Shown here in pieces: positions 5,119 to 44,766 of a stretch of 64,000 nt of DNA (positions within the stretch are counted from its first letter, which is position 1; each line of letters starts with the position of its first letter). The position numbers and the translations under genes are program-made. The stretch spans positions 1,600,001-1,664,000 of the forward strand of contig CBDCYI010000011.1 of the NCBI GenBank assembly GCA_965224085.1. Reading direction: 5' to 3'. The notes under the pieces are model-generated. The model worked only from the letters and a program-made list of their open reading frames with translations, was not told the DNA's origin and made no database searches. Source of the stretch: Candidatus Marinacidobacterales bacterium (GTDB taxonomy: Bacteria > Acidobacteriota > Vicinamibacteria > Marinacidobacterales > SMYC01).

Positions 5119-5643
5119 ATGAAGAATCGCGTCCCGCTGGCCGTCGCACCCCTGCTCGGTTTGTTGGTTTCCTCATGTGGCGGAAGCGGTCCGTCAGGCC
5201 CGACCGCCCCAACCACTCCGCCCACGAGCACTCCCGTGCTCCCGGTATCGCCATTCGAGATTACAACCCTCATTACCGTGTACCAAAACGCCGCGAGCTT
5301 TGCCCAGTTCACCGAAGACACAACATCCGACGAGAACATCGGAAAAGTCCTTCTCGGCGTCGACGAGCTCACCGCCGGGGGCACGCTTCTCGATAACGAG
5401 CTCTTGCGCTTCGATCTGCAACAAGCCATCAATAGGGCCAACGAGCAGTTCTCGGACGCGGACTTCGAAGCCGCGTTCGGTGAAACCAAGGAGAATCTGC
5501 GCCGCTTCTTCAACGACGCCGACAACGACGGCTGGTCCGTCGATGGCCGCCACGGAGAAGGACGTGACTGGCCCCATGACGCCGACGGCAACGACCCCGA
5601 TGGCTGGCTAGCCCAAATGGCCATCACCGTAACTCGCCGATAA
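5119..5643 (+). CDS. Hypothetical lipoprotein
   Basis: Signal peptide ending LVSSC, Pro/Thr linker, acidic domain. Confidence 0.65.
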   Translation: MKNRVPLAVAPLLGLLVSSCGGSGPSGPTAPTTPPTSTPVLPVSPFEITTLITVYQNAASFAQFTEDTTSDENIGKVLLGVDELTAGGTLLDNELLRFDLQQAINRANEQFSDADFEAAFGETKENLRRFFNDADNDGWSVDGRHGEGRDWPHDADGNDPDGWLAQMAITVTRR

Positions 5644-33375: not shown

Positions 33376-34014
33376 TCAGGCAAAGGTTCGCATGAGCCCG
33401 ACGACGACGCCACGCAGCTCCACGGATTCCGCATCCACGATGATGGACTCATAGCGTTCGTTCGCTGGACGGAGCTCGACTTTGACTTCGTTCGGCGACG
33501 GCCCACGAGGCCCTTGAGGCCCTTGAGGATAGAAACGCTTGACCGTCGCTTCTCCATCCACAACCGCCACGACGGTCGCCCCCGCTTGCGCGGTCGAACT
33601 TTGCTGAACGACGAGCACGTCGCCTTCGCAGATGCCGTCGTCGATCATGCTATCCCCGGTGACCCGCAGGGCGAAGTGTTCTCCGCGCTTGAGGAGTGAT
33701 TCCGGAACGTCAATGCTGTCCGGAATCTCTTCCGCTTCCACGGGTGCGCCAGCCACGACCGTCCCAAGCAACGGCAGCGTCGCCGCCCGTGGGGGCTCTT
33801 CCCGCTCGATGATCTCTAGCGCGCGCTTCTGGTTCTTCCATGGTGACCGGATGAATCCCTTGCGGTGGAGCTGCAACAGATGTTTGCGGGCCGAGTTCAA
33901 GGAGGCGAACCCGAACTCCTGCCGGATCTCTTCGTAGGACGGGGGCATGCCGTGCTCCCGCCGATAGTCTTTGAGAAACTGCCAAACCGCTCGTTGCTTA
34001 GGTGTTAAATCCAT
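33376..34014 (-). CDS. lexA: SOS repressor LexA
   Basis: LTPKQ, PPSYEEI, A-G cleavage site (VAGAP), GDSM, TVKR. Confidence 0.95.
   Translation of the reverse strand: MDLTPKQRAVWQFLKDYRREHGMPPSYEEIRQEFGFASLNSARKHLLQLHRKGFIRSPWKNQKRALEIIEREEPPRAATLPLLGTVVAGAPVEAEEIPDSIDVPESLLKRGEHFALRVTGDSMIDDGICEGDVLVVQQSSTAQAGATVVAVVDGEATVKRFYPQGPQGPRGPSPNEVKVELRPANERYESIIVDAESVELRGVVVGLMRTFA
33500..33529. repeat. In-frame 9-bp tandem repeat in lexA
   Basis: GGCCCACGA GGCCCTTGA GGCCCTTGA, encoding PQGPQGPRGP. Confidence 0.75.
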
Positions 34015-34052: not shown

Positions 34053-34099
34053 CTACTAAATGTAGTACCTAATTTATACATAACCCCAACATATTGTGT
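34053..34099 (-). promoter_or_regulatory. Tandem NrdR-like boxes flanking a DnaA-like box upstream of lexA
   Basis: CTACTAAATGTAGTAC (34053-68) and CCCCAACATATTGTGT (34084-99), 31 bp apart; TTATACATA (34074-82); minus-strand -10 TATACT at 34041-46. Confidence 0.65.
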
Positions 34100-34143
34100 T
34101 TATTGTTGCTGGAATTATTTCCTACACCTTGGGTATACCCCTC

Positions 34144-34968
34144 ATGCAACAGCAGCGGGATCCACGCATCTATCAAATCGCGACGTTGGCGGCACTGGTC
34201 GCCTACGGCGCCGTAAGCCTCGATCTCGAGATTCAACTTGCCGCCGCCGCCGTCATCGTCGCCACCGCTCTCGCCACGCAGTTTCTCTGCACAAAGCTCG
34301 TCTCACTTCCTCGCTTCGATCCGAATAGCGCACTCATTTCGTCGTTGTCACTTTGCCTGCTGCTCCGCACGGGCTCGATGAGCCTCGTCGTGGCCACGAC
34401 CGTGATAGCGATCGCGAGCAAGTTCTTCCTGAGAGTCGATGGCCGTCACGTGTTCAACCCGACCAATTTCGGCCTCGTCGCCGTGATGGCTTCGGTAGGC
34501 GGGATTTGGGTGTCGCCCGGCCAATGGGGGACCGGTGCCTTTTTCGCGTTCCTGCTCGTTGGTATCGGCGGGCTCGTTATCCATCGCGCTTCGAGGAGCG
34601 ACGTGACCTACGCCTTCGTCGCCTTCTACGCCGCGCTCGTTGTTGGCCGCGCGCTCTGGCTCGGAGACCCGCTCGCGATTCCGCTGCACCACCTCCAAAA
34701 CGGCGCTTTTCTTCTCTTCGCGTTTTTCATGATTTCCGATCCCAAGACAACGCCCGATTCCCGGGCGGGCCGGATCCTCTTCGCACTGATGGTCGCCCTC
34801 GGCGCCGGGTTCGTGCACTTCGTGCTCTTCGAGCCGAACGGTTTTCTCTGGTCTCTCGTTCTCTCCGCCCCGACAACGCCTCTAATCAACCGGCTGCTTC
34901 CGGGTGAGCGCTATGAATGGAGCCGCCGCCGCCCGAGCATGCGGCTATCTCAAAGGAGCTACGCATGA
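34144..34968 (+). CDS. Stand-alone NqrB/RnfD-family membrane protein
   Basis: DPRIYQI, ASKF, HVFNPTNFG, FMISDPKTTP. Confidence 0.85.
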   Translation: MQQQRDPRIYQIATLAALVAYGAVSLDLEIQLAAAAVIVATALATQFLCTKLVSLPRFDPNSALISSLSLCLLLRTGSMSLVVATTVIAIASKFFLRVDGRHVFNPTNFGLVAVMASVGGIWVSPGQWGTGAFFAFLLVGIGGLVIHRASRSDVTYAFVAFYAALVVGRALWLGDPLAIPLHHLQNGAFLLFAFFMISDPKTTPDSRAGRILFALMVALGAGFVHFVLFEPNGFLWSLVLSAPTTPLINRLLPGERYEWSRRRPSMRLSQRSYA

Positions 34969-38952: not shown

Positions 38953-40638
38953 ATGATGAAACGATGCTTCTCCGTCCTCGTCGCGGTGCTAGCGCAAGGG
39001 CTTCCGGCCGCCGCGCAATCCGTCGCTCCCGGAAACGAAACGATTCTCGAGCAAGAGCTCCGGGCCGATCTTTTCTTTCTCGCCTCAGACGAGCTACAGG
39101 GCCGCCTCAGCGAAACGCCCGAGAACCGGACCGCAGCGGCGTTCATCCGCTCGCGCTTCGAGCGCCTCGGGCTCGAGCCGATGGGTCCCGAAGGCTCCTA
39201 TTACCAGCCCTATCGTTTGATGCGCGCGCGCCTCGGAGGCGAGAACGAGCTCGAGCTGATGCGCGAGAACAGCACGACCCTCAGAGGCCAGCTCGGTGAG
39301 AGTTTCTTCCCGCAGACGTTTAGTGCGAGCGGGAGCGTAGAAGCCGAGCTCGTCTTCGCGGGCTACGGGATCAGCGCTCCCAAACTGTCACACAGCGACT
39401 ATGGGTCGCGTGCGCTCGGTGGCCTGATCGTGCTCGTTTTGGATCACGAGCCCGGCGAGCGGGACCCCGAAAGCATGTTCGACGGTGTCGTGACTTCGGA
39501 ATACTCGCGCAATTTGCGCAAAGCTCTGTACGCTCAACGCGCGGGCGCCGCGGGAATTCTCTTCGTCACCGACACCCACAACCATCCGGGCCCTTCCAAT
39601 TTCTCGCGCCTCGCTCTTAGAAGCTGGCCGGATCCACCGCGGCGGATTCCACGATACACGCTCGCGAGCTGGGCGGAAGCGGTGCGCATCCCGGCGCTTC
39701 AGATTTCGACTTCGCTCGCCGAAGCGCTCGTGAACAGCACGGGGCGCTCGCTCGACGAGCTCGCGCGCGAGTCCGAGACGGCGGGAGGCATCGAGCCCAT
39801 CCCGGTACCTTCGCTTCTCCTTCGGCTTACCACGAGCGTCGAGCGCCAGAGCGTCGACGACCGCAACGTCGTCGCCGGAATCGTTGGATCCGATCTACGG
39901 CTGAAGAACGAATGGGTCATCGTGTGCGCCCATTACGACCACGACGGCGCCGATTCTGCGCGTGTGTTCAACGGCGCGGATGACGACGGCTCGGGCACGG
40001 TAGCGCTCCTCGAAATCGCCGAAGCCTACGCGCTCGCCGCCCGAAACGGCGAGCGTCCGAAACGAAGCGTGCTCTTTGCAGCCTGGAACTCGGAAGAGCG
40101 CGGCCTTCTCGGTGCTTGGGCCTATGCGGAGAACCCGCTCGTCCCGCTCGAGCAGACCGTCGCTACGCTCAACATGGACATGATCGGCCGCAACGAAGAA
40201 GTGCGCGTGGGTGGTGGGCGACGTTTCCGCGGCCTCGAGCTGCAAACGGCCGAATCGAACAAGAACGCGGTCAACATCATGGGCTATAGCTACAGCGCCG
40301 ATTTGAAACGCGCGGCCGAGGAAGCGAATCGCGGCTCGGAGCTCGAGCTCAAGATGCGCTACGACAACAACCCTTCCAACCTGCTACGCCGCAGCGACCA
40401 GTGGCCGTTTCTCCAAAAGGCTGTCCCGTCTCTTTTTTTCCACACGGGCCTTCACCCCGACTATCACACCGAGTTCGACGTCCCCGAGCGCATCGAATAC
40501 TCAAAGCTCGAGCGCATCGCCCGCCTCGTTCACCAAATGAGCTGGGATCTCGCTAACGACGAAAGCCGTCCGGGATTCGACAAACTCGACCAGGCTGCGG
40601 CCACCGCCGATCCGCAAACCGATCCGGATCACTACTAA
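38953..40638 (+). CDS. M28 family peptidase with PA domain
   Basis: AHYDH, GADDDGSG, EERGLLG, NMDMIGR, RSDQ, DYH. Confidence 0.92.
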   Translation: MMKRCFSVLVAVLAQGLPAAAQSVAPGNETILEQELRADLFFLASDELQGRLSETPENRTAAAFIRSRFERLGLEPMGPEGSYYQPYRLMRARLGGENELELMRENSTTLRGQLGESFFPQTFSASGSVEAELVFAGYGISAPKLSHSDYGSRALGGLIVLVLDHEPGERDPESMFDGVVTSEYSRNLRKALYAQRAGAAGILFVTDTHNHPGPSNFSRLALRSWPDPPRRIPRYTLASWAEAVRIPALQISTSLAEALVNSTGRSLDELARESETAGGIEPIPVPSLLLRLTTSVERQSVDDRNVVAGIVGSDLRLKNEWVIVCAHYDHDGADSARVFNGADDDGSGTVALLEIAEAYALAARNGERPKRSVLFAAWNSEERGLLGAWAYAENPLVPLEQTVATLNMDMIGRNEEVRVGGGRRFRGLELQTAESNKNAVNIMGYSYSADLKRAAEEANRGSELELKMRYDNNPSNLLRRSDQWPFLQKAVPSLFFHTGLHPDYHTEFDVPERIEYSKLERIARLVHQMSWDLANDESRPGFDKLDQAAATADPQTDPDHY

Positions 40639-40753
40639 CAACGCCTGGGCGCACCAAAGTCGCAAAAACGCGATAAGAAAAAAGCACGATCAGAGGTCTC
40701 TTTTCTTTCTTTGTTTCTCTTGCCCTTTAGGGTTGGCCCGCTTCAACCTTCAA

Positions 40754-40842
40754 ACATCCACAGCTCCTGCGGATAAGATGTGGAGAACCTGTGAATTCGT
40801 TGTTGACAACGAGAACACACAATATCTTGGGCCTGTGGATGA
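40754..40842. promoter_or_regulatory. Phased DnaA-box array
   Basis: TGTGGATAA-like 9-mers at 40768, 40779, 40790, 40801 and 40834 (11-bp register); one inverted box at 40754. Confidence 0.7.
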
Positions 40843-40889
40843 AAAAGCCACAAAAAGTAGTTGACCGCTTATTGCGGGGATGGCAGTAT
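40817..40889 (+). promoter_or_regulatory. Tandem NrdR-like boxes overlapping a sigma70 promoter
   Basis: ACACAATATCTTGGGC (40817) and CCACAAAAAGTAGTTG (40848), 31 bp apart; TTGACC(40861)-17 bp-CAGTAT. Confidence 0.65.
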
Positions 40890-40895
40890 TTTGTT

Positions 40896-41050
40896 CTCAA
40901 CGGATACCCAGACTTTGCGTTCGACGGAGGTGCGGCACTCATGAAGACGAACGGCATCCTTTGGGTATAGGGGACGGCGTCACGGCCGTTCAACTTCAAT
41001 GAGGCCCGATGGTTCCCCCCCATCGGACCGAGCTTAACTTCCTCCTCACG
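40896..41050 (+). ncRNA. Candidate structured RNA containing a 9-codon ORF (MKTNGILWV, 40941-40970)
   Basis: GGAGG SD at 40926; nested complementary segments; own promoter; boundaries inferred. Confidence 0.4.
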
Positions 41051-41086
41051 GCTTCTGTCCTGGACTTATAATGTCTCTTCAGACGC

Positions 41087-43120
41087 ATGCACGTCATCCA
41101 GCCAGCCAAAACCAAGCGCACTACCCCGTCGAGCCGGTCCGGAGCCCACGCTCTGAATGCTTCTGCCGACTCGAAAAGCCAGCTGAGAGGTAGAGCCCTC
41201 ATCTTCTGGGACCCCAAGCGGCCCGAACAAAAACTCGACGCCATCGATACCGACCAGATCACGCCTGCTACGGACTGCGTTTCGGAAAGCCTCGACTCGC
41301 TCGACGAGAAGTGGAAAATGGGCGCATTCCGTTACTTGATGCCGGATTTCCGCAAACGGGTGCACGCGGGCGAGACGTTCGTCGTCGCCGGCGCCCGTTT
41401 CGCCATCGGCTCCTCGCGCGAGATGAGCCCCGCCGGCCTCAACGCCGTTGCTGAAGAGGTCGGCCTTGAGATGGTCATCGTCTGCGGCGACAACATGGGT
41501 GACATCTTCCGACGCAACGCGTTCAATCTCGGGCTCGAAGTTGTGCAATCCCCCGAAGCCGTTGACGACGCGCGCGACGGGGACGAGCTTTCTTACGATC
41601 GCGAGACGCGTGAGCTCGTGAACATTACCCAAAAAAAGACCTACACACCGCTCCCGCTGACGGCGAAGGAAGACGAGATCCGCCGCTCCGGAGGGATCTT
41701 TGCCGTCGGCCGCCGCGAGTTCCCAGAATCGGTGCAGCGCCAACCGGTAATCGTTTGGCCCGACGAAGAGACCGCGCACGGGCTCACGACGACTGAGCAG
41801 ATCGTGTGGGCGCACCGCTTCGACAAAGACGCCAAGGTCGAGCCGGGTGAGACGTTGCGCGTCTATGCCGATCTTCTCCCTGCATCGGACGGCACCGCGC
41901 CGTTCGCGATCCATACCTTCAACCAAATCACGGGTGGCGACGCTATCTACCCGCGCCAGGCCGCCGTGGCCAATGATCATTTCGTCTTTACCGGTCGCGA
42001 TTCAGACGACAAGCAGACCTCGATCGGTCGCGCGTTCGCAAAGCTCCAAGGAATGGAGAAGCCCTATTACGCGACGCCAGGCGACGGGATCTTTCACTTC
42101 TACTTTCCCGAGCAAGGCCTAATTCTTCCCGGTCAGTTCGTTCCCGGCGCCGATTCACATAGCCGCGCCTATGGAGCCTATGGAGCGATTGGGATTGGGG
42201 TCGGCTCGACGACGCTCGGCTTCGGTTGGTCGACGGGTTACATCTATTTCACACTCGCGCGCGCGCGTCGCATCGCGTTTAAAGGCAAGCTTCAGCCTTG
42301 GGTCAGCGGGAAGGACATCGTGCTCGCGCTCCTCGCGCGTTGGGGCGCTGAGCAGTCTCAGGGCATGTCCGTCGAGTTCGTCGACGCAAACTTGGAGCTT
42401 CCTATCGCCTATCGCAACACGATCTGCAACATGATGGCGGAAGCCGAAGCGCAAAACGGTATCTTCGCGCCGGACGAGCTCACCTATGCGTGGTACCGCG
42501 ACCAAGGCGGGAGGACCGATCTCCCCTATCCGCCGATCCGTCCCGGTACTGACGCACATTACGCGATCGACGAGACGCTCGACCTCTCCGAGATCGTGCC
42601 CATGATTGCGAAACCTTATTCGCCTGGAAACGCCTTCGCCGCCGAGGACGTCGCGGGCGAGCGGCTCGCGTTCGACAAAGCCTACATCGGCTCATGCACA
42701 AACGGGAGCTATCAGGACCTCTTGCAGGCCGCGCTCGTGCTCTATATGGCGAGGCGGAACGGACGCGATCGCGCGGCGTGCGATTTCATCATCTTTCCGG
42801 GCTCGGGTGGTGTGAAACAGCAGATCGAGCGGCCCGAGCCTCGCCTCGGCGGAGAGTCGATCGCCGAGGTCTTGCGCGCTGCGGGAGGTCAGATCCGAGA
42901 CTCGTGGTGCGGCCCCTGCTTCGGCCAGGGCCCCGACGCTCTGACAGAGGGCGAAACGGCGATCACGTCGTTCAATCGGAACTGGCAAAATCGCATGGGC
43001 CTCGGCGGTCGGGGCTATCTCGCGAGCCCGGCCATCGTCGCCGCCTCGGCACTTCTCGGCTATATGGGCCCACCGAGCGAGCTCGGCCTCACGTGGAGCC
43101 CCGAAGAGTTTGGTTTGTGA
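41087..43120 (+). CDS. Aconitase/isopropylmalate-isomerase family enzyme, swivel domain first (LeuD-LeuC-like fusion)
   Basis: IDTDQITP, GSSRE, IF.RNA.N.G then DH, GIFH, DSH, GSCTNG, CGPCFG, NRN..RMG, YLASP. Confidence 0.88.
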   Translation: MHVIQPAKTKRTTPSSRSGAHALNASADSKSQLRGRALIFWDPKRPEQKLDAIDTDQITPATDCVSESLDSLDEKWKMGAFRYLMPDFRKRVHAGETFVVAGARFAIGSSREMSPAGLNAVAEEVGLEMVIVCGDNMGDIFRRNAFNLGLEVVQSPEAVDDARDGDELSYDRETRELVNITQKKTYTPLPLTAKEDEIRRSGGIFAVGRREFPESVQRQPVIVWPDEETAHGLTTTEQIVWAHRFDKDAKVEPGETLRVYADLLPASDGTAPFAIHTFNQITGGDAIYPRQAAVANDHFVFTGRDSDDKQTSIGRAFAKLQGMEKPYYATPGDGIFHFYFPEQGLILPGQFVPGADSHSRAYGAYGAIGIGVGSTTLGFGWSTGYIYFTLARARRIAFKGKLQPWVSGKDIVLALLARWGAEQSQGMSVEFVDANLELPIAYRNTICNMMAEAEAQNGIFAPDELTYAWYRDQGGRTDLPYPPIRPGTDAHYAIDETLDLSEIVPMIAKPYSPGNAFAAEDVAGERLAFDKAYIGSCTNGSYQDLLQAALVLYMARRNGRDRAACDFIIFPGSGGVKQQIERPEPRLGGESIAEVLRAAGGQIRDSWCGPCFGQGPDALTEGETAITSFNRNWQNRMGLGGRGYLASPAIVAASALLGYMGPPSELGLTWSPEEFGL

Positions 43121-44766
43121 TGTCGAGCTCTTTCGTACCTCGTAACTACCAACCGTCGCTCCCAGCGGACGAGCTGATCCGCGAGGAGAAGCCTGGTGAT
43201 GAAGCCGTCCCGATGGATGTGGTCTTCGTCGGCGGCGGGCCCGCGGGTCTCGCCGGCGCCATCGAGCTCGCGAAGCTCGTTAGCAAAGATGGAGAACTCG
43301 GTGAAATCGAGATCGGCGTTCTCGAGAAGTCGGAAGAGCTAGGACAGCATTGCCTCTCCGGAGCGGTCGTGAACCCTATCGCCTTCCGAGATCTCTTTCC
43401 CGATCTTTCCGACAGCGACTTCCCGTTTCGCGCGAGAGTGCACGACGAGCGCGTCTATTTCGTGACGGAACGCAGCTCCATGCGCCTCCCAACCCCGCCG
43501 ACGATGCGAAACGAAGGCAACTTCGTCGCATCGATCTCGGAGTTCGTGCGCTGGCTCGGCGAAAAGGCCGAGGGGCTCGGCGTCAATTTGTTCACCGGCT
43601 TTCCCGCGGACGCGCTCCTCGTGGAAGGCTCGCGCGTCACGGGCGTACGGACGACGCCCGGCGGTTTGACAAAAGACGGCAAGCCCGGCGGCAACTACAT
43701 GCCGCCCACCGACGTGACCGCGCAAGTCACTGTGCTCTCCGAAGGCACGCGCGGACCACTCACCCAAGCCTATCTGGGCTGGCAGAGGATCGCGTCACCG
43801 AACCCGCAGATATACGCGCTCGGGGTGAAAGAGCTCTGGGAAACGAAGCGCCCCCTCGACGCGGTCATCCACACGCTCGGTTGGCCGCTCCCACGCGACG
43901 CGTTCGGCGGGAGTTTCTTCTACCCGTTCACCAAAAACCTTGCCGCCATCGGCCTCGTCATCGGCCTCGACTACAAAGAGTCCTCGCTCGACGTGCACGC
44001 CCTCTTGCAGGACATGAAGCAGCACCCCCTCTTCCGTCCCTACCTCGAAGGCGGCGAAATGCTCGAGTGGGGCGCAAAAACGATCCCGGAGGGCGGTTAC
44101 TATTCGCTCCCCGAACGGCTTCACGGAGACGGGCTCGTCATGGTCGGCGACGCGGTCGGCTTCGTCGACGTGCCCTCTCTCAAAGGCGTCCACTACGCGA
44201 TGAAGTCAGGCATGCTCGCCGCGCGCACGATCTACGAGGCGCTCAAGAAAGGCGACACAAAAGCCGCGACGCTCGCGAGCTACGACCAAGCCGTTCACGC
44301 GAGCTTCATCCGCAAGGATCTTCACCGCACGCGCAACATGCGGCTCGGTTTCAAATCAGGCTTTTACGTCGGCGGCTTCAAAGCCGGCCTCATGACGGTG
44401 ACAGGCGGCGCCGCGTTCGGTTCGAAGATCGACGTCGAAGAGGACGCCGCCGATCGCAAGACGGTCACAGAGTCGAAAGAGCTCAAACCCGACGGCTCGC
44501 TGACGTTCAGCAAGCTCGACGCGGTATTCCGCTCCGGCAACAATACTCGCGACGACATGCCGTCCCACCTCACGGTGTCTAGCGATATCCCGCCCGAAGT
44601 CGCGCGCTTCTACGAGCACATATGCCCCGCCGCCGTCTACGAGCGGCAAGGTGACGAGCTCGTCGTCAATTTTTCCAATTGCGTCGATTGCAAGACGACC
44701 GACGTGCTCGGACCCCGGTGGCGCCCGCGCGAGGGTGGAGCGGGGACTAAATATAAGAGGATGTGA
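43120..44766 (+). CDS. Electron transfer flavoprotein-quinone oxidoreductase
   Basis: GGGPAG, LSGAV, GVKELW, AKTIPEGG, KGVHYAMKSG, C-terminal Fe-S region. Confidence 0.9.
   Translation: MSSSFVPRNYQPSLPADELIREEKPGDEAVPMDVVFVGGGPAGLAGAIELAKLVSKDGELGEIEIGVLEKSEELGQHCLSGAVVNPIAFRDLFPDLSDSDFPFRARVHDERVYFVTERSSMRLPTPPTMRNEGNFVASISEFVRWLGEKAEGLGVNLFTGFPADALLVEGSRVTGVRTTPGGLTKDGKPGGNYMPPTDVTAQVTVLSEGTRGPLTQAYLGWQRIASPNPQIYALGVKELWETKRPLDAVIHTLGWPLPRDAFGGSFFYPFTKNLAAIGLVIGLDYKESSLDVHALLQDMKQHPLFRPYLEGGEMLEWGAKTIPEGGYYSLPERLHGDGLVMVGDAVGFVDVPSLKGVHYAMKSGMLAARTIYEALKKGDTKAATLASYDQAVHASFIRKDLHRTRNMRLGFKSGFYVGGFKAGLMTVTGGAAFGSKIDVEEDAADRKTVTESKELKPDGSLTFSKLDAVFRSGNNTRDDMPSHLTVSSDIPPEVARFYEHICPAAVYERQGDELVVNFSNCVDCKTTDVLGPRWRPREGGAGTKYKRM

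Follow-up and report, generated by a model that had tools for sequence, protein, structure and literature searches.

Organization of the locus

The window analysed here is a stretch of 64,000 nucleotides (G000:C11:1600001-1664000) from a Candidatus Marinacidobacterales genome whose 6.87-Mb assembly comprises 12 contigs. Within it, a gap of 448 nucleotides separates a gene for an M28-family peptidase (38953-40638, plus strand) from a gene for a 677-residue protein of the aconitase family (41087-43120, plus strand). The gap holds an open reading frame (ORF) of only nine codons, MKTNGILWV, which is preceded by a promoter with an overlapping candidate operator for NrdR, a regulator of ribonucleotide reductase (RNR) genes, and by candidate binding sites for DnaA, and which is followed by two hairpins. 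The segment from 40754 to 41029 would constitute a self-contained, translated micro-gene under control of the NrdR/DnaA type whose selected product is the peptide, a reading in which we place about even confidence. The original prediction, made from the letters of the window, had drawn attention to this gap; all of the motifs that it named were found in place when the window sequence was read directly. The parts of the putative micro-gene are as follows.

40754-40762: DnaA box ACATCCACA, 7/9 match to the consensus
40768-40776: DnaA box TGCGGATAA, 8/9 match
40779-40787: DnaA box TGTGGAGAA, 8/9 match
40788-40816: nearly invariant block CTGTGAATTCGTTGTTGAC between the DnaA boxes and NrdR box 1, from the alignment
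40817-40832: NrdR box 1 ACACAATATCTTGGGC, 6/6 key positions (C4 A6 A8 T9 T11 G13)
40834-40842: DnaA box TGTGGATGA, 8/9 match, within the 15-bp linker between the NrdR boxes
40848-40863: NrdR box 2 CCACAAAAAGTAGTTG, 5/6 key positions with AA in the middle (T9 replaced by A), overlapping the -35 element
-35 TTGACC 40861-40866, spacer of 17 nucleotides, TG 40881-40882, -10 CAGTAT 40884-40889, plus strand: promoter, from the sequence
40904-40912 and 40917-40923, plus strand: arms in the 5' untranslated region (5'UTR), ATACCCAGA pairing with TTTGGGTAT and GCGTTCG pairing with CGAACGG, from minimum-energy folds
40926-40930, plus strand: Shine-Dalgarno (SD) sequence GGAGG, 10 nucleotides ahead of the ATG
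40941-40970, plus strand: nine-codon ORF MKTNGILWV and its TAG (ATG at 40941, TAG at 40968-40970), from coding-type conservation
40972-40991, plus strand: hairpin H2, GGACGGC-loop-GCCGTTC, directly after the stop codon, from pair counts
41003-41029, plus strand: GC-rich hairpin T, its core CCGATGG (41006-41012) pairing with CCATCGG (41020-41026), from covariation

A search for transfer RNA and transfer-messenger RNA genes found none, and an ORF on the minus strand of the gap (40727-41023) matched no Pfam family.

Coding-type conservation of the nine-codon ORF

The ORF was compared across 23 distinct loci from genomes and metagenome contigs (alignment A1). Codons 3-9 depart from the consensus 2, 2 and 36 times at codon positions 1, 2 and 3, respectively, and the columns that vary number 2, 2 and 6. 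The four changes at the first two positions are accounted for by a replacement of N by S in genome G018 and by replacements of T by Q and L by I in genome G021. Synonymous codons are used, Gly being written GGC, GGG, GGA or GGT, Ile ATC or ATT, Val GTA, GTC or GTT and Asn AAC or AAT, and the stop codon at the end of the ORF varies among TAG, TGA and TAA. In the same alignment the flanks of the ORF vary at about 8 cells per column, with 220 cells over the 26 columns of the 5'UTR. Codon 2 is free (K, N, T, M or S); the consensus reads M-x-T-N-G-I-L-W-V, and the conserved unit is T-N-G-I-L-W-V plus the stop codon. The length is nine codons in 21 of the 23 loci (the stop codon is lost in G003), and nearly all loci have a GGAGG- or GAGG-type motif no more than 20 nucleotides from the ATG. 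The same seven residues are under purifying selection in eight genera and in eight further metagenome variants. Judging from this substitution pattern the ORF is under coding-type selection, and the short ORF that had been picked out from a single sequence emerges as real and conserved. One residue departs from the free use of third positions: Leu is CTT in 21 of the 23 ORFs, versus 13.8% CTT among the Leu codons of 490 long ORFs of the window's genome. This preference suggests that the RNA imposes a further constraint, and it fits the pairing described below.

A longer frame in register with the ORF (40791-40970, 59 residues, open in the window) was considered and rejected. Insertions and deletions break it between genera, and G016, G006 and locus L080 rule it out, with stop codons in frame 5, 12 and 13 codons ahead of the ATG, respectively.

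The intergenic DNA is 83-89% identical over some 340 nucleotides in 4/4 genomes of the window's genus, and seven further members of the family retain two blocks of it; 22 genomes sampled from two other families gave no match. Searched with up to two mismatches, the ORF pattern is present in 15 of the 19 family genomes, where a reversed-pattern control gave 3 matches. When no more than one mismatch is allowed, 15 of the order's 55 genomes have it (control, 0), one carrier, G021, belonging to a sister family. A sample of 400 other genomes from across the phylum yielded no case. (The tallies for the intergenic DNA and for the ORF across the order, like that for the downstream gene given below, include an unpublished genome, G027, whose locus was not read and on which no other claim rests.) A scan of 185,579 species genomes returned 17 stretches, of which eight are labelled Acidobacteria or Acidobacteriota; the other nine come from unrelated taxa and are taken as chance matches, about 13 of which are expected for the pattern in 596 Gb. 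A metagenome scan added 14 stretches, with the whole module on 11 (three of them identical to genome loci) and absent from three. In G012 the promoter is kept together with a diverged nine-codon ORF, MSCHGLLWI, that has undergone conservative replacements. A loose form of the peptide pattern yielded no credible copy in G015, G010 or G007.

A possible second-context copy was noticed in genome G008 (contig C748, locus L122), where positions 5449-5472 hold a micro-ORF, MNGILWV, with AAGGAGG 7 nucleotides upstream and without NrdR boxes. It was kept out of alignment A1 and of the RNA alignment (A2) and is counted only as a possible copy. It follows a 571-residue ORF resembling substrate-binding proteins and is itself followed, at 5536-5625, by an ORF of 28-33 residues with an acidic, helical front part (MEQEVQEIVELTVEELEERTAPGVIVAF).

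A putative promoter of the NrdR/DnaA type

Alignments with relatives show the motifs TTGAC and TGGCA to be conserved, and transcription from this promoter would start near 40896. According to passages of PMC13584703, an NrdR site consists of two 16-bp boxes, 15-16 bp apart, in which C4, A6, A8, T9, T11 and G13 are highly conserved; the same passages describe natural boxes with AA in the middle, for example box 2 of S. coelicolor nrdRJ, and parts of PMC12051234 give 14-17 bp for the spacers of sites bound by NrdR. The operator of the window, with a linker of 15 bp, agrees with the published definition and is adjoined by DnaA boxes, so that the promoter would indeed be of the NrdR/DnaA type, as originally predicted. 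Among 24 related loci surveyed, 19 score 11/12 with a linker of 15 or 16 bp and three score 10/12. The linker measures 15 or 16 bp in 22 of the 24; that of G003 is 14 bp (it scores 8 at linker 15-16), and G008 has no NrdR site (score 7). In G013 and G016 the top-scoring box register is shifted, and in our own reading of the alignment the orthologous register scores equally. With the key positions fixed and the other positions and the linker sequence varying, the operator bears the signature of a protein-binding site, and NrdR probably binds there.

The prediction that no nrd or dnaA gene would follow this promoter also held in the 24 related loci examined: what lies downstream is the nine-codon ORF and then the LeuD-LeuC-like gene of the aconitase family. 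The genome's single RNR large-subunit gene (nrdJ type, G000:C4:729721) is found on contig C4, with a 12/12 operator of its own. The candidate for NrdR itself is the one ORF with an ATP-cone (170 residues, G000:C11:927450), assigned by size and domain alone; the ATP-cone was found in this NrdR-size ORF and nowhere else.

The block CTGTGAATTCGTTGTTGAC ahead of NrdR box 1 (TTAC in other genera) hardly varies within the family, and the version found in the window's genus contains a perfect TTGACA without a matching -10 element.

DnaA boxes were scored against the consensus of E. coli, TTATCCACA. Matches of at least 8/9 number 462 in the assembly, or 0.012 per 180 nucleotides, and the micro-gene locus provides the only 180-nucleotide interval in the 6.87 Mb with three or more of them. 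The box positions are conserved among relatives, and an arrangement of one forward and two tandem reverse boxes 2 bp apart recurs in genus g2 and related contigs. The box within the NrdR linker is present in genera g1 and g6, reaches 9/9 (TGTGGATAA) in G001, G002, G004 and G009, and is absent from g2. Matches of at least 8/9 drop to one in G006, G013, G016, G011, G021 and others. DnaA may bind at this promoter.

An interpretation of the locus as the replication origin (oriC) was rejected. Cumulative GC skew falls steadily through the window, with turns at C11:1.198 Mb and C5:1.65 Mb. The dnaA gene of this assembly is at C5:1830322, and in two single-contig relatives the locus lies 4.15 Mb (G002, 9.2 Mb) and 4.16 Mb (G003, 10.2 Mb) from dnaA, on the terminus side.

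Structure of the predicted transcript

Taken as a single sequence, the fold of 40895-41060 is unremarkable (-56.1 kcal/mol versus -52.8 +/- 4.2 for dinucleotide shuffles; z -0.77, 38 of 200 shuffles equally good); strong evidence for the module comes from the comparison across genomes. The structured RNA posited originally matched no Rfam family at the gathering score anywhere in the window, and the search of 40600-41200 at E <= 10 gave a single chance match of 17.3 bits to a eukaryotic long non-coding RNA model.

The two hairpins after the ORF are supported by RNAalifold and by pair counts in alignment A2, which leaves aside G011, G021 and G012 because their RNA differs. H2 begins 0-5 nucleotides after the stop codon; 87.4% of its cells are paired and three of its eight pairs change on both sides. 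For hairpin T the corresponding values are 92.1% and seven of ten, so that the CCGATGG/CCATCGG hairpin of the original prediction does covary. The two together have 90% of cells paired and 10 pairs that change on both sides, versus 4.2 in shuffles (0 of 500 as high); slid controls were 33-49% paired. Hairpin T is followed by 6-8 U in 10 nucleotides, with energies of -21 to -27 kcal/mol, in genera g2 and g10, in G006 and in locus L078, by 4-5 U in g6-type loci and by 1-5 U in the window's genus. In most genera T is, by the look of its stem and U tract, probably an intrinsic terminator. In the window the hairpin is weakened, its energy being -9.6 kcal/mol and only 2 of the 10 nucleotides after it being U, and the presumed terminator has decayed. 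(G008, G011 and G021 were excluded from the terminator and antiterminator analysis; in G004 the hairpin finder took the wrong hairpin.)

In most minimum-energy folds the 5'UTR (ACCCRAR and GCGUUCG) is paired with codons 3-9, the SD sequence and the AUG lying in a loop. The duplex of 5'UTR and ORF reaches -22.0 kcal/mol in the window (z -3.8 against 300 mononucleotide shuffles of one partner), with z <= -2 in 17 of 22 loci. The pairing of ATACCCA (40904-40910) with TGGGTAT (40962-40968), initially put forward as an alternative, belongs here; the pairing stands but the label does not, since this is the one conserved across genera. The reverse applies to the long pairing proposed between the 5' part of the ORF and the downstream sequence: CTCATGAAG (40938-40946) and CTTCAATGAG (40994-41003) are present as named and the duplex is strong in the window (-24.3 kcal/mol, z -5.6, 300 mononucleotide shuffles of one partner), but it is not conserved, beating shuffles in only 5 of 22 loci. 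Pairing of GAACGGC (40949-40955) with GCCGTTC (40985-40991), also proposed, is not borne out: it is 87% paired with zero compensatory changes, the same as shuffles, and it competes with H2. As for GGAGG with CCTCC, this pairing is confined to the window's genus, the only one in which the following element is conserved.

41041-41045, plus strand: CCTCC, complementary to the SD sequence

Probable independence of the downstream gene

The gene that follows lies outside the proposed unit. It encodes a fused LeuD-LeuC-type hydro-lyase, with the LeuD-like part ahead of the LeuC-like part, whose closest relatives of solved structure are the large subunits of isopropylmalate/citramalate isomerase and homoaconitase. 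It is present in 53 of the 55 genomes of the order. Immediately upstream lies a -10 element of its own:

41067-41072, plus strand: TATAAT, -10 box of the downstream gene, 14 nucleotides ahead of its ATG

A perfect TATAAT is found 6-20 nucleotides before the gene in the 22 loci where the motif finder placed the start, six of which lack the module (G010, G008, G015, G033, G025 and G019); genomes of family f3 have TATACT 7 nucleotides ahead of a GTG start. The gene thus appears to have its own TATAAT, as the original prediction had it. In G010 the module is deleted and the stretch just after T is kept, together with the TATAAT and the gene. In locus L078 about 150 nucleotides have been inserted between T and the TATAAT, so that the latter has remained next to the gene, and in genus g5 the gene is present without the module. 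When the stretch after the stop codon was matched with the 5' arm of T for a possible antiterminator, pairing was no better than in shuffles in any of 20 loci (z -0.85 to +1.44). The separate TATAAT, the loss of the module with retention of the gene and the lack of an antiterminator argue that the gene is independent of the module, and that the module is unlike an attenuator.

Other features of this gene were noted in passing. It seems to be leaderless or nearly so throughout the order (window 41067-41089, loci L093-L117), having TATAAT or TATACT 6-20 nucleotides upstream and no SD sequence. The start of the protein, H-x-I-Q/E-P-A, is conserved and the next 30 or so residues are not. In G018 (G018:C19:35699-37673) the gene is split in two by an internal TGA or a break of the frame, which may denote a pseudogene or, in this 74%-complete genome, an assembly error. 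In the window, a gene for electron-transfer flavoprotein (ETF)-ubiquinone oxidoreductase (43117-44766) overlaps or abuts it, and the two could form an operon.

A putative micro-gene and the alternatives

In the reading that we favour, the NrdR operator would lie over the promoter with box 2 on the -35 element, flanked by DnaA boxes and with one more within the linker. Such an arrangement leads one to expect that the promoter would be shut when NrdR carries dATP plus ATP, with DnaA modulating it, and that it would fire upon a change in deoxynucleoside triphosphate (dNTP) supply or in replication status, following the logic of nrd promoters. The transcript would measure about 135-150 nucleotides and comprise a 5'UTR of 45 nucleotides, the SD sequence, the ORF, H2 and the terminator-type hairpin. 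In the free RNA, the 5'UTR would pair with codons 3-9 and leave the SD sequence and AUG looped, and a translating ribosome would have to open this helix as well as the hairpin after the stop codon. Selection would act on the peptide or on the act of making this exact peptide, and the product would presumably be a regulatory micropeptide or nascent peptide under the control of dNTP or replication status rather than a leader on which the neighbouring gene depends. The link to replication and dNTP status, drawn already in the original prediction, is suggested by the operator sites only. A bolder proposal, which we put forward tentatively and think doubtful, is that NrdR and DnaA jointly control a free nine-residue peptide (x-x-T-N-G-I-L-W-V) that would act in trans on the machinery of replication or dNTP supply, or on another regulator, when dNTPs are short.

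A number of observations weigh against interpreting the segment as an independent micro-gene. We know of no precedent for an unprocessed nine-residue bacterial peptide acting in trans, and to our knowledge all conserved bacterial ORFs of fewer than 10 codons are leaders acting in cis. The same gene follows the module in 24 of 25 cases, and with the same neighbour almost everywhere a role in cis is possible. The module is dispensable: G010 and all of family f3 lack it, as do most of f2 and, at this site, genus g5. Decay of the terminator in the window's genus makes read-through into the next gene likely. The -10 element CAGTAT is a weak, 3/6 match to the consensus. A consensus promoter and terminator scan lists neither local promoter, which can be ascribed to this poor match and to the absence of a -35 element for the TATAAT at 41067; the one site that it flags as terminator-like falls within the next gene, on the minus strand. 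The duplex of 5'UTR and ORF is not significant in G001, G006, G016, G011 and G021 and its covariation is thin, with one compensatory case seen, little being possible in a helix whose ORF side is fixed. The criterion for NrdR pairs (at least 11/12) is loose, giving 33 sites in the genome versus a mean of 13.05 in 20 shuffles, and several of the 33 belong to a repeat bounded by inverted ends; it is hence the pattern of conservation that carries the operator claim. Finally, of 22 runs listed, the analysis covered two from RNA, the likely source run and another of the same sample. An RNA contig covers 41196-41345, inside the neighbouring gene, a 46-nucleotide piece matches 41012-41057 and then runs on unlike the window, and run X22 gave no match; no conclusion on transcription is drawn from these runs.

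Some of these points would suit a leader peptide that controls the LeuD-LeuC-like gene, translation of the upstream ORF, or stalling at its Ile, Leu, Trp and Val codons or at its stop codon, setting downstream expression as in the trp, leu and ilv attenuators or in arrest leaders. Promoter, SD sequence, short ORF, hairpins, terminator and gene follow one another in textbook order. The module is directly upstream of the gene and co-oriented with it wherever a contig reaches that far, including G021, from another family, and G012. The isopropylmalate and citramalate isomerases among the closest solved relatives of the product serve Leu and Ile synthesis, and conservation at the amino acid level with free third positions would also fit the sensing of codons or tRNAs. 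Without a U tract in the window's genus, G011 and G021, read-through is expected there; in G011, in our own reading of this one genome, a stretch by the stop codon of the ORF can pair either with the sequence after it or with the start region of the gene. That other conserved ORFs of this size are known as cis-acting leaders speaks for the same explanation. We nevertheless rate it as unlikely, if worth keeping in mind, and find the attenuator that the original prediction listed among its alternatives a weak one. None of the 20 loci offers antiterminator pairing beyond the level of shuffles. I, L, W and V are each represented by a single codon instead of a run, and conservation is just as high for T, N and G. 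The gene has a TATAAT of its own across the order, even in six genomes without the module (TATACT in f3), and G010 and genus g5 run it with no module at all. The genome has a canonical LeuC-type gene at another place, and control of such an enzyme by NrdR and DnaA has no evident logic.

The other explanations that we considered account for less. The locus might serve as a DnaA-binding site that titrates DnaA or alters its nucleotide state, as E. coli datA and DARS do, the promoter and ORF being accessory (transcription might, for example, modulate DnaA binding). It holds the only cluster of three near-consensus boxes in the assembly, the forward and two tandem reverse boxes are conserved in g2 and related contigs, and it is not oriC, as judged from the lack of a skew turn and from the distance of about 4.15 Mb to dnaA in G002 and G003. 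Being the only cluster is less telling in an assembly of 12 contigs, from which oriC itself may be missing; moreover, the consensus applied is that of E. coli, a single box of at least 8/9 is left in G006, G013, G016, G011, G021 and others, and neither the coding selection on the peptide nor the NrdR operator would be explained, all of which makes this very unlikely in our estimation. It is hardly probable, too, that the locus specifies a small non-coding RNA or an element akin to a riboswitch, with the ORF being incidental. Conservation of hairpins T and H2 with covariation, conserved complementarity of 5'UTR and ORF and an invariance of the nucleotides CTTTGGGT beyond coding need would be in keeping with it. 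The 2/2/36 pattern, the three stop codons interchanged at one position and the conserved ATG and SD sequence are not, and G012 and G021 change residues conservatively yet lose most of the RNA pairings; nor does any Rfam family match. The small RNA inferred originally would thus give way to an object that is first of all an ORF of the translated type. The stump of a deleted gene, a further alternative of the original prediction, or a chance ORF, would account for the lost stop codon and 14-bp NrdR linker of G003, for the weakened terminator hairpin of the window and for loss of the module in several lineages. Purifying selection on seven residues in eight genera and eight metagenome variants contradicts the idea that a former gene (nrd, for instance) is decaying behind its promoter, as do the fixed length of nine codons in 21 of 23 distinct loci and the absence of a longer gene at this place in any relative, and we consider its probability close to negligible.

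Comparison with known systems

The promoter region of E. coli nrdAB is controlled by DnaA and NrdR. The present locus resembles it in that two 16-bp NrdR boxes, set 15-16 bp apart, lie over the core promoter next to DnaA boxes (box rules as given in parts of PMC13584703 and PMC12051234), and a response to dATP/ATP and to DnaA status would likewise be expected. Unlike nrdAB, it has no RNR gene in 24 loci, its place being taken by a nine-codon ORF that ends in a terminator-type hairpin.

With the trp, leu and ilv attenuators the module shares an SD sequence and a short ORF with Ile, Leu, Trp and Val codons, alternative hairpins that have segments in common, a GC hairpin that in most genera precedes a U tract, and a position ahead of a LeuCD-like gene; it differs from them in the absence of codon runs and of an antiterminator, in the separate promoter of the downstream gene and in the equal conservation of T, N and G. 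The leaders of erm, cat and msr genes, toiL and TnaC (5-10 codons) offer a parallel in length, in the conservation of an exact peptide with a hydrophobic C-terminal part, in the fixed position of the stop codon and in an RNA structure opened by the ribosome at the stop. Here, however, no drug-resistance or catabolic gene is seen under control, nor an alternative structure tying a stalled ribosome to a downstream ribosome-binding site or terminator.

PatS of Anabaena is a product of 13-17 residues with an active C-terminal penta- or hexapeptide. Like PatS and the SHP and XIP peptides, the ORF would yield a tiny ribosomal peptide with 5-7 conserved C-terminal residues as its would-be active part, from a regulated promoter of its own; those peptides have longer precursors, some of them processed and exported, whereas an unprocessed product of nine residues would be the shortest. 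The genes tisB and dinQ, controlled by LexA, encode membrane toxins of 27-29 residues and have antisense RNAs. A promoter of the DNA-stress type, a tiny ORF and a short structured mRNA with pairing between 5'UTR and ORF are common to them and the module, but a chain of nine residues is too short to cross a membrane, and an antisense partner, for which no search was made, was not seen here.

The components of the module are each of a known kind; their combination and the size of the ORF are new. A full-text literature search found the peptide motif in no paper, and nothing describing an NrdR-controlled small ORF or leader peptide, or NrdR in Acidobacteria. Portions of PMC12051234 and PMC13584703 describe NrdR as specific for RNR; a conserved operator ahead of a micro-ORF unrelated to RNR would point to a wider NrdR regulon in a little-studied phylum. 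A nine-codon ORF with coding-type selection, its own promoter and its own terminator indicates that ORFs far below annotation thresholds can be selected. The question that such a peptide raises is whether it acts inside the ribosome or after release. Should it act in trans, no shorter ribosomal peptide that signals or regulates without being processed would be known from bacteria, and the NrdR/DnaA circuit would have a new output.

Other candidate NrdR sites in the genome

Only three NrdR pairs in the genome score 12/12: those of the RNR large-subunit gene, of the lexA region and of a gene for a FadL/TodX-like outer-membrane protein, the latter two being further candidate targets of NrdR. The RNR locus (L017, G000:C4:728821-729700) combines its 12/12 operator with a promoter of the TTGACA/TATAAA type and a leader of about 380 nucleotides ahead of a 969-residue frame; the leader has no Rfam match at E <= 0.01. 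The pair in the lexA region is in the window, at 34053-34099 (CTACTAAATGTAGTAC, 15 bp, CCCCAACATATTGTGT), between lexA (33376-34014, minus strand) and a divergent gene for an RnfD-like membrane protein (34096-34968, plus strand), and suggests a possible NrdR input to lexA, the repressor gene of the SOS response, or to its neighbour. The third, outside the window at G000:C5:958315-958361, is 66-106 bp upstream of a gene encoding 411 residues with a signal peptide, whose first 60 residues give a weak match to FadL/TodX (PF03349; E 0.0031); one of its boxes is identical to the core of micro-gene box 1.

The genome-wide scan for NrdR pairs was rejected as evidence by itself, since many of the 11/12 matches are copies of a repeated element. 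This element is about 130 nucleotides long, has inverted ends (GGTATTGTCAAGTTGAG ... CTCAACTTGACAATACC) resembling those of a miniature inverted-repeat transposable element (MITE) and mimics the NrdR key positions by chance. Its copies in G000 are found at C5:718178, C5:1984245, C9:576893, C9:506635, C9:107178, C11:614757 and C4:495522.

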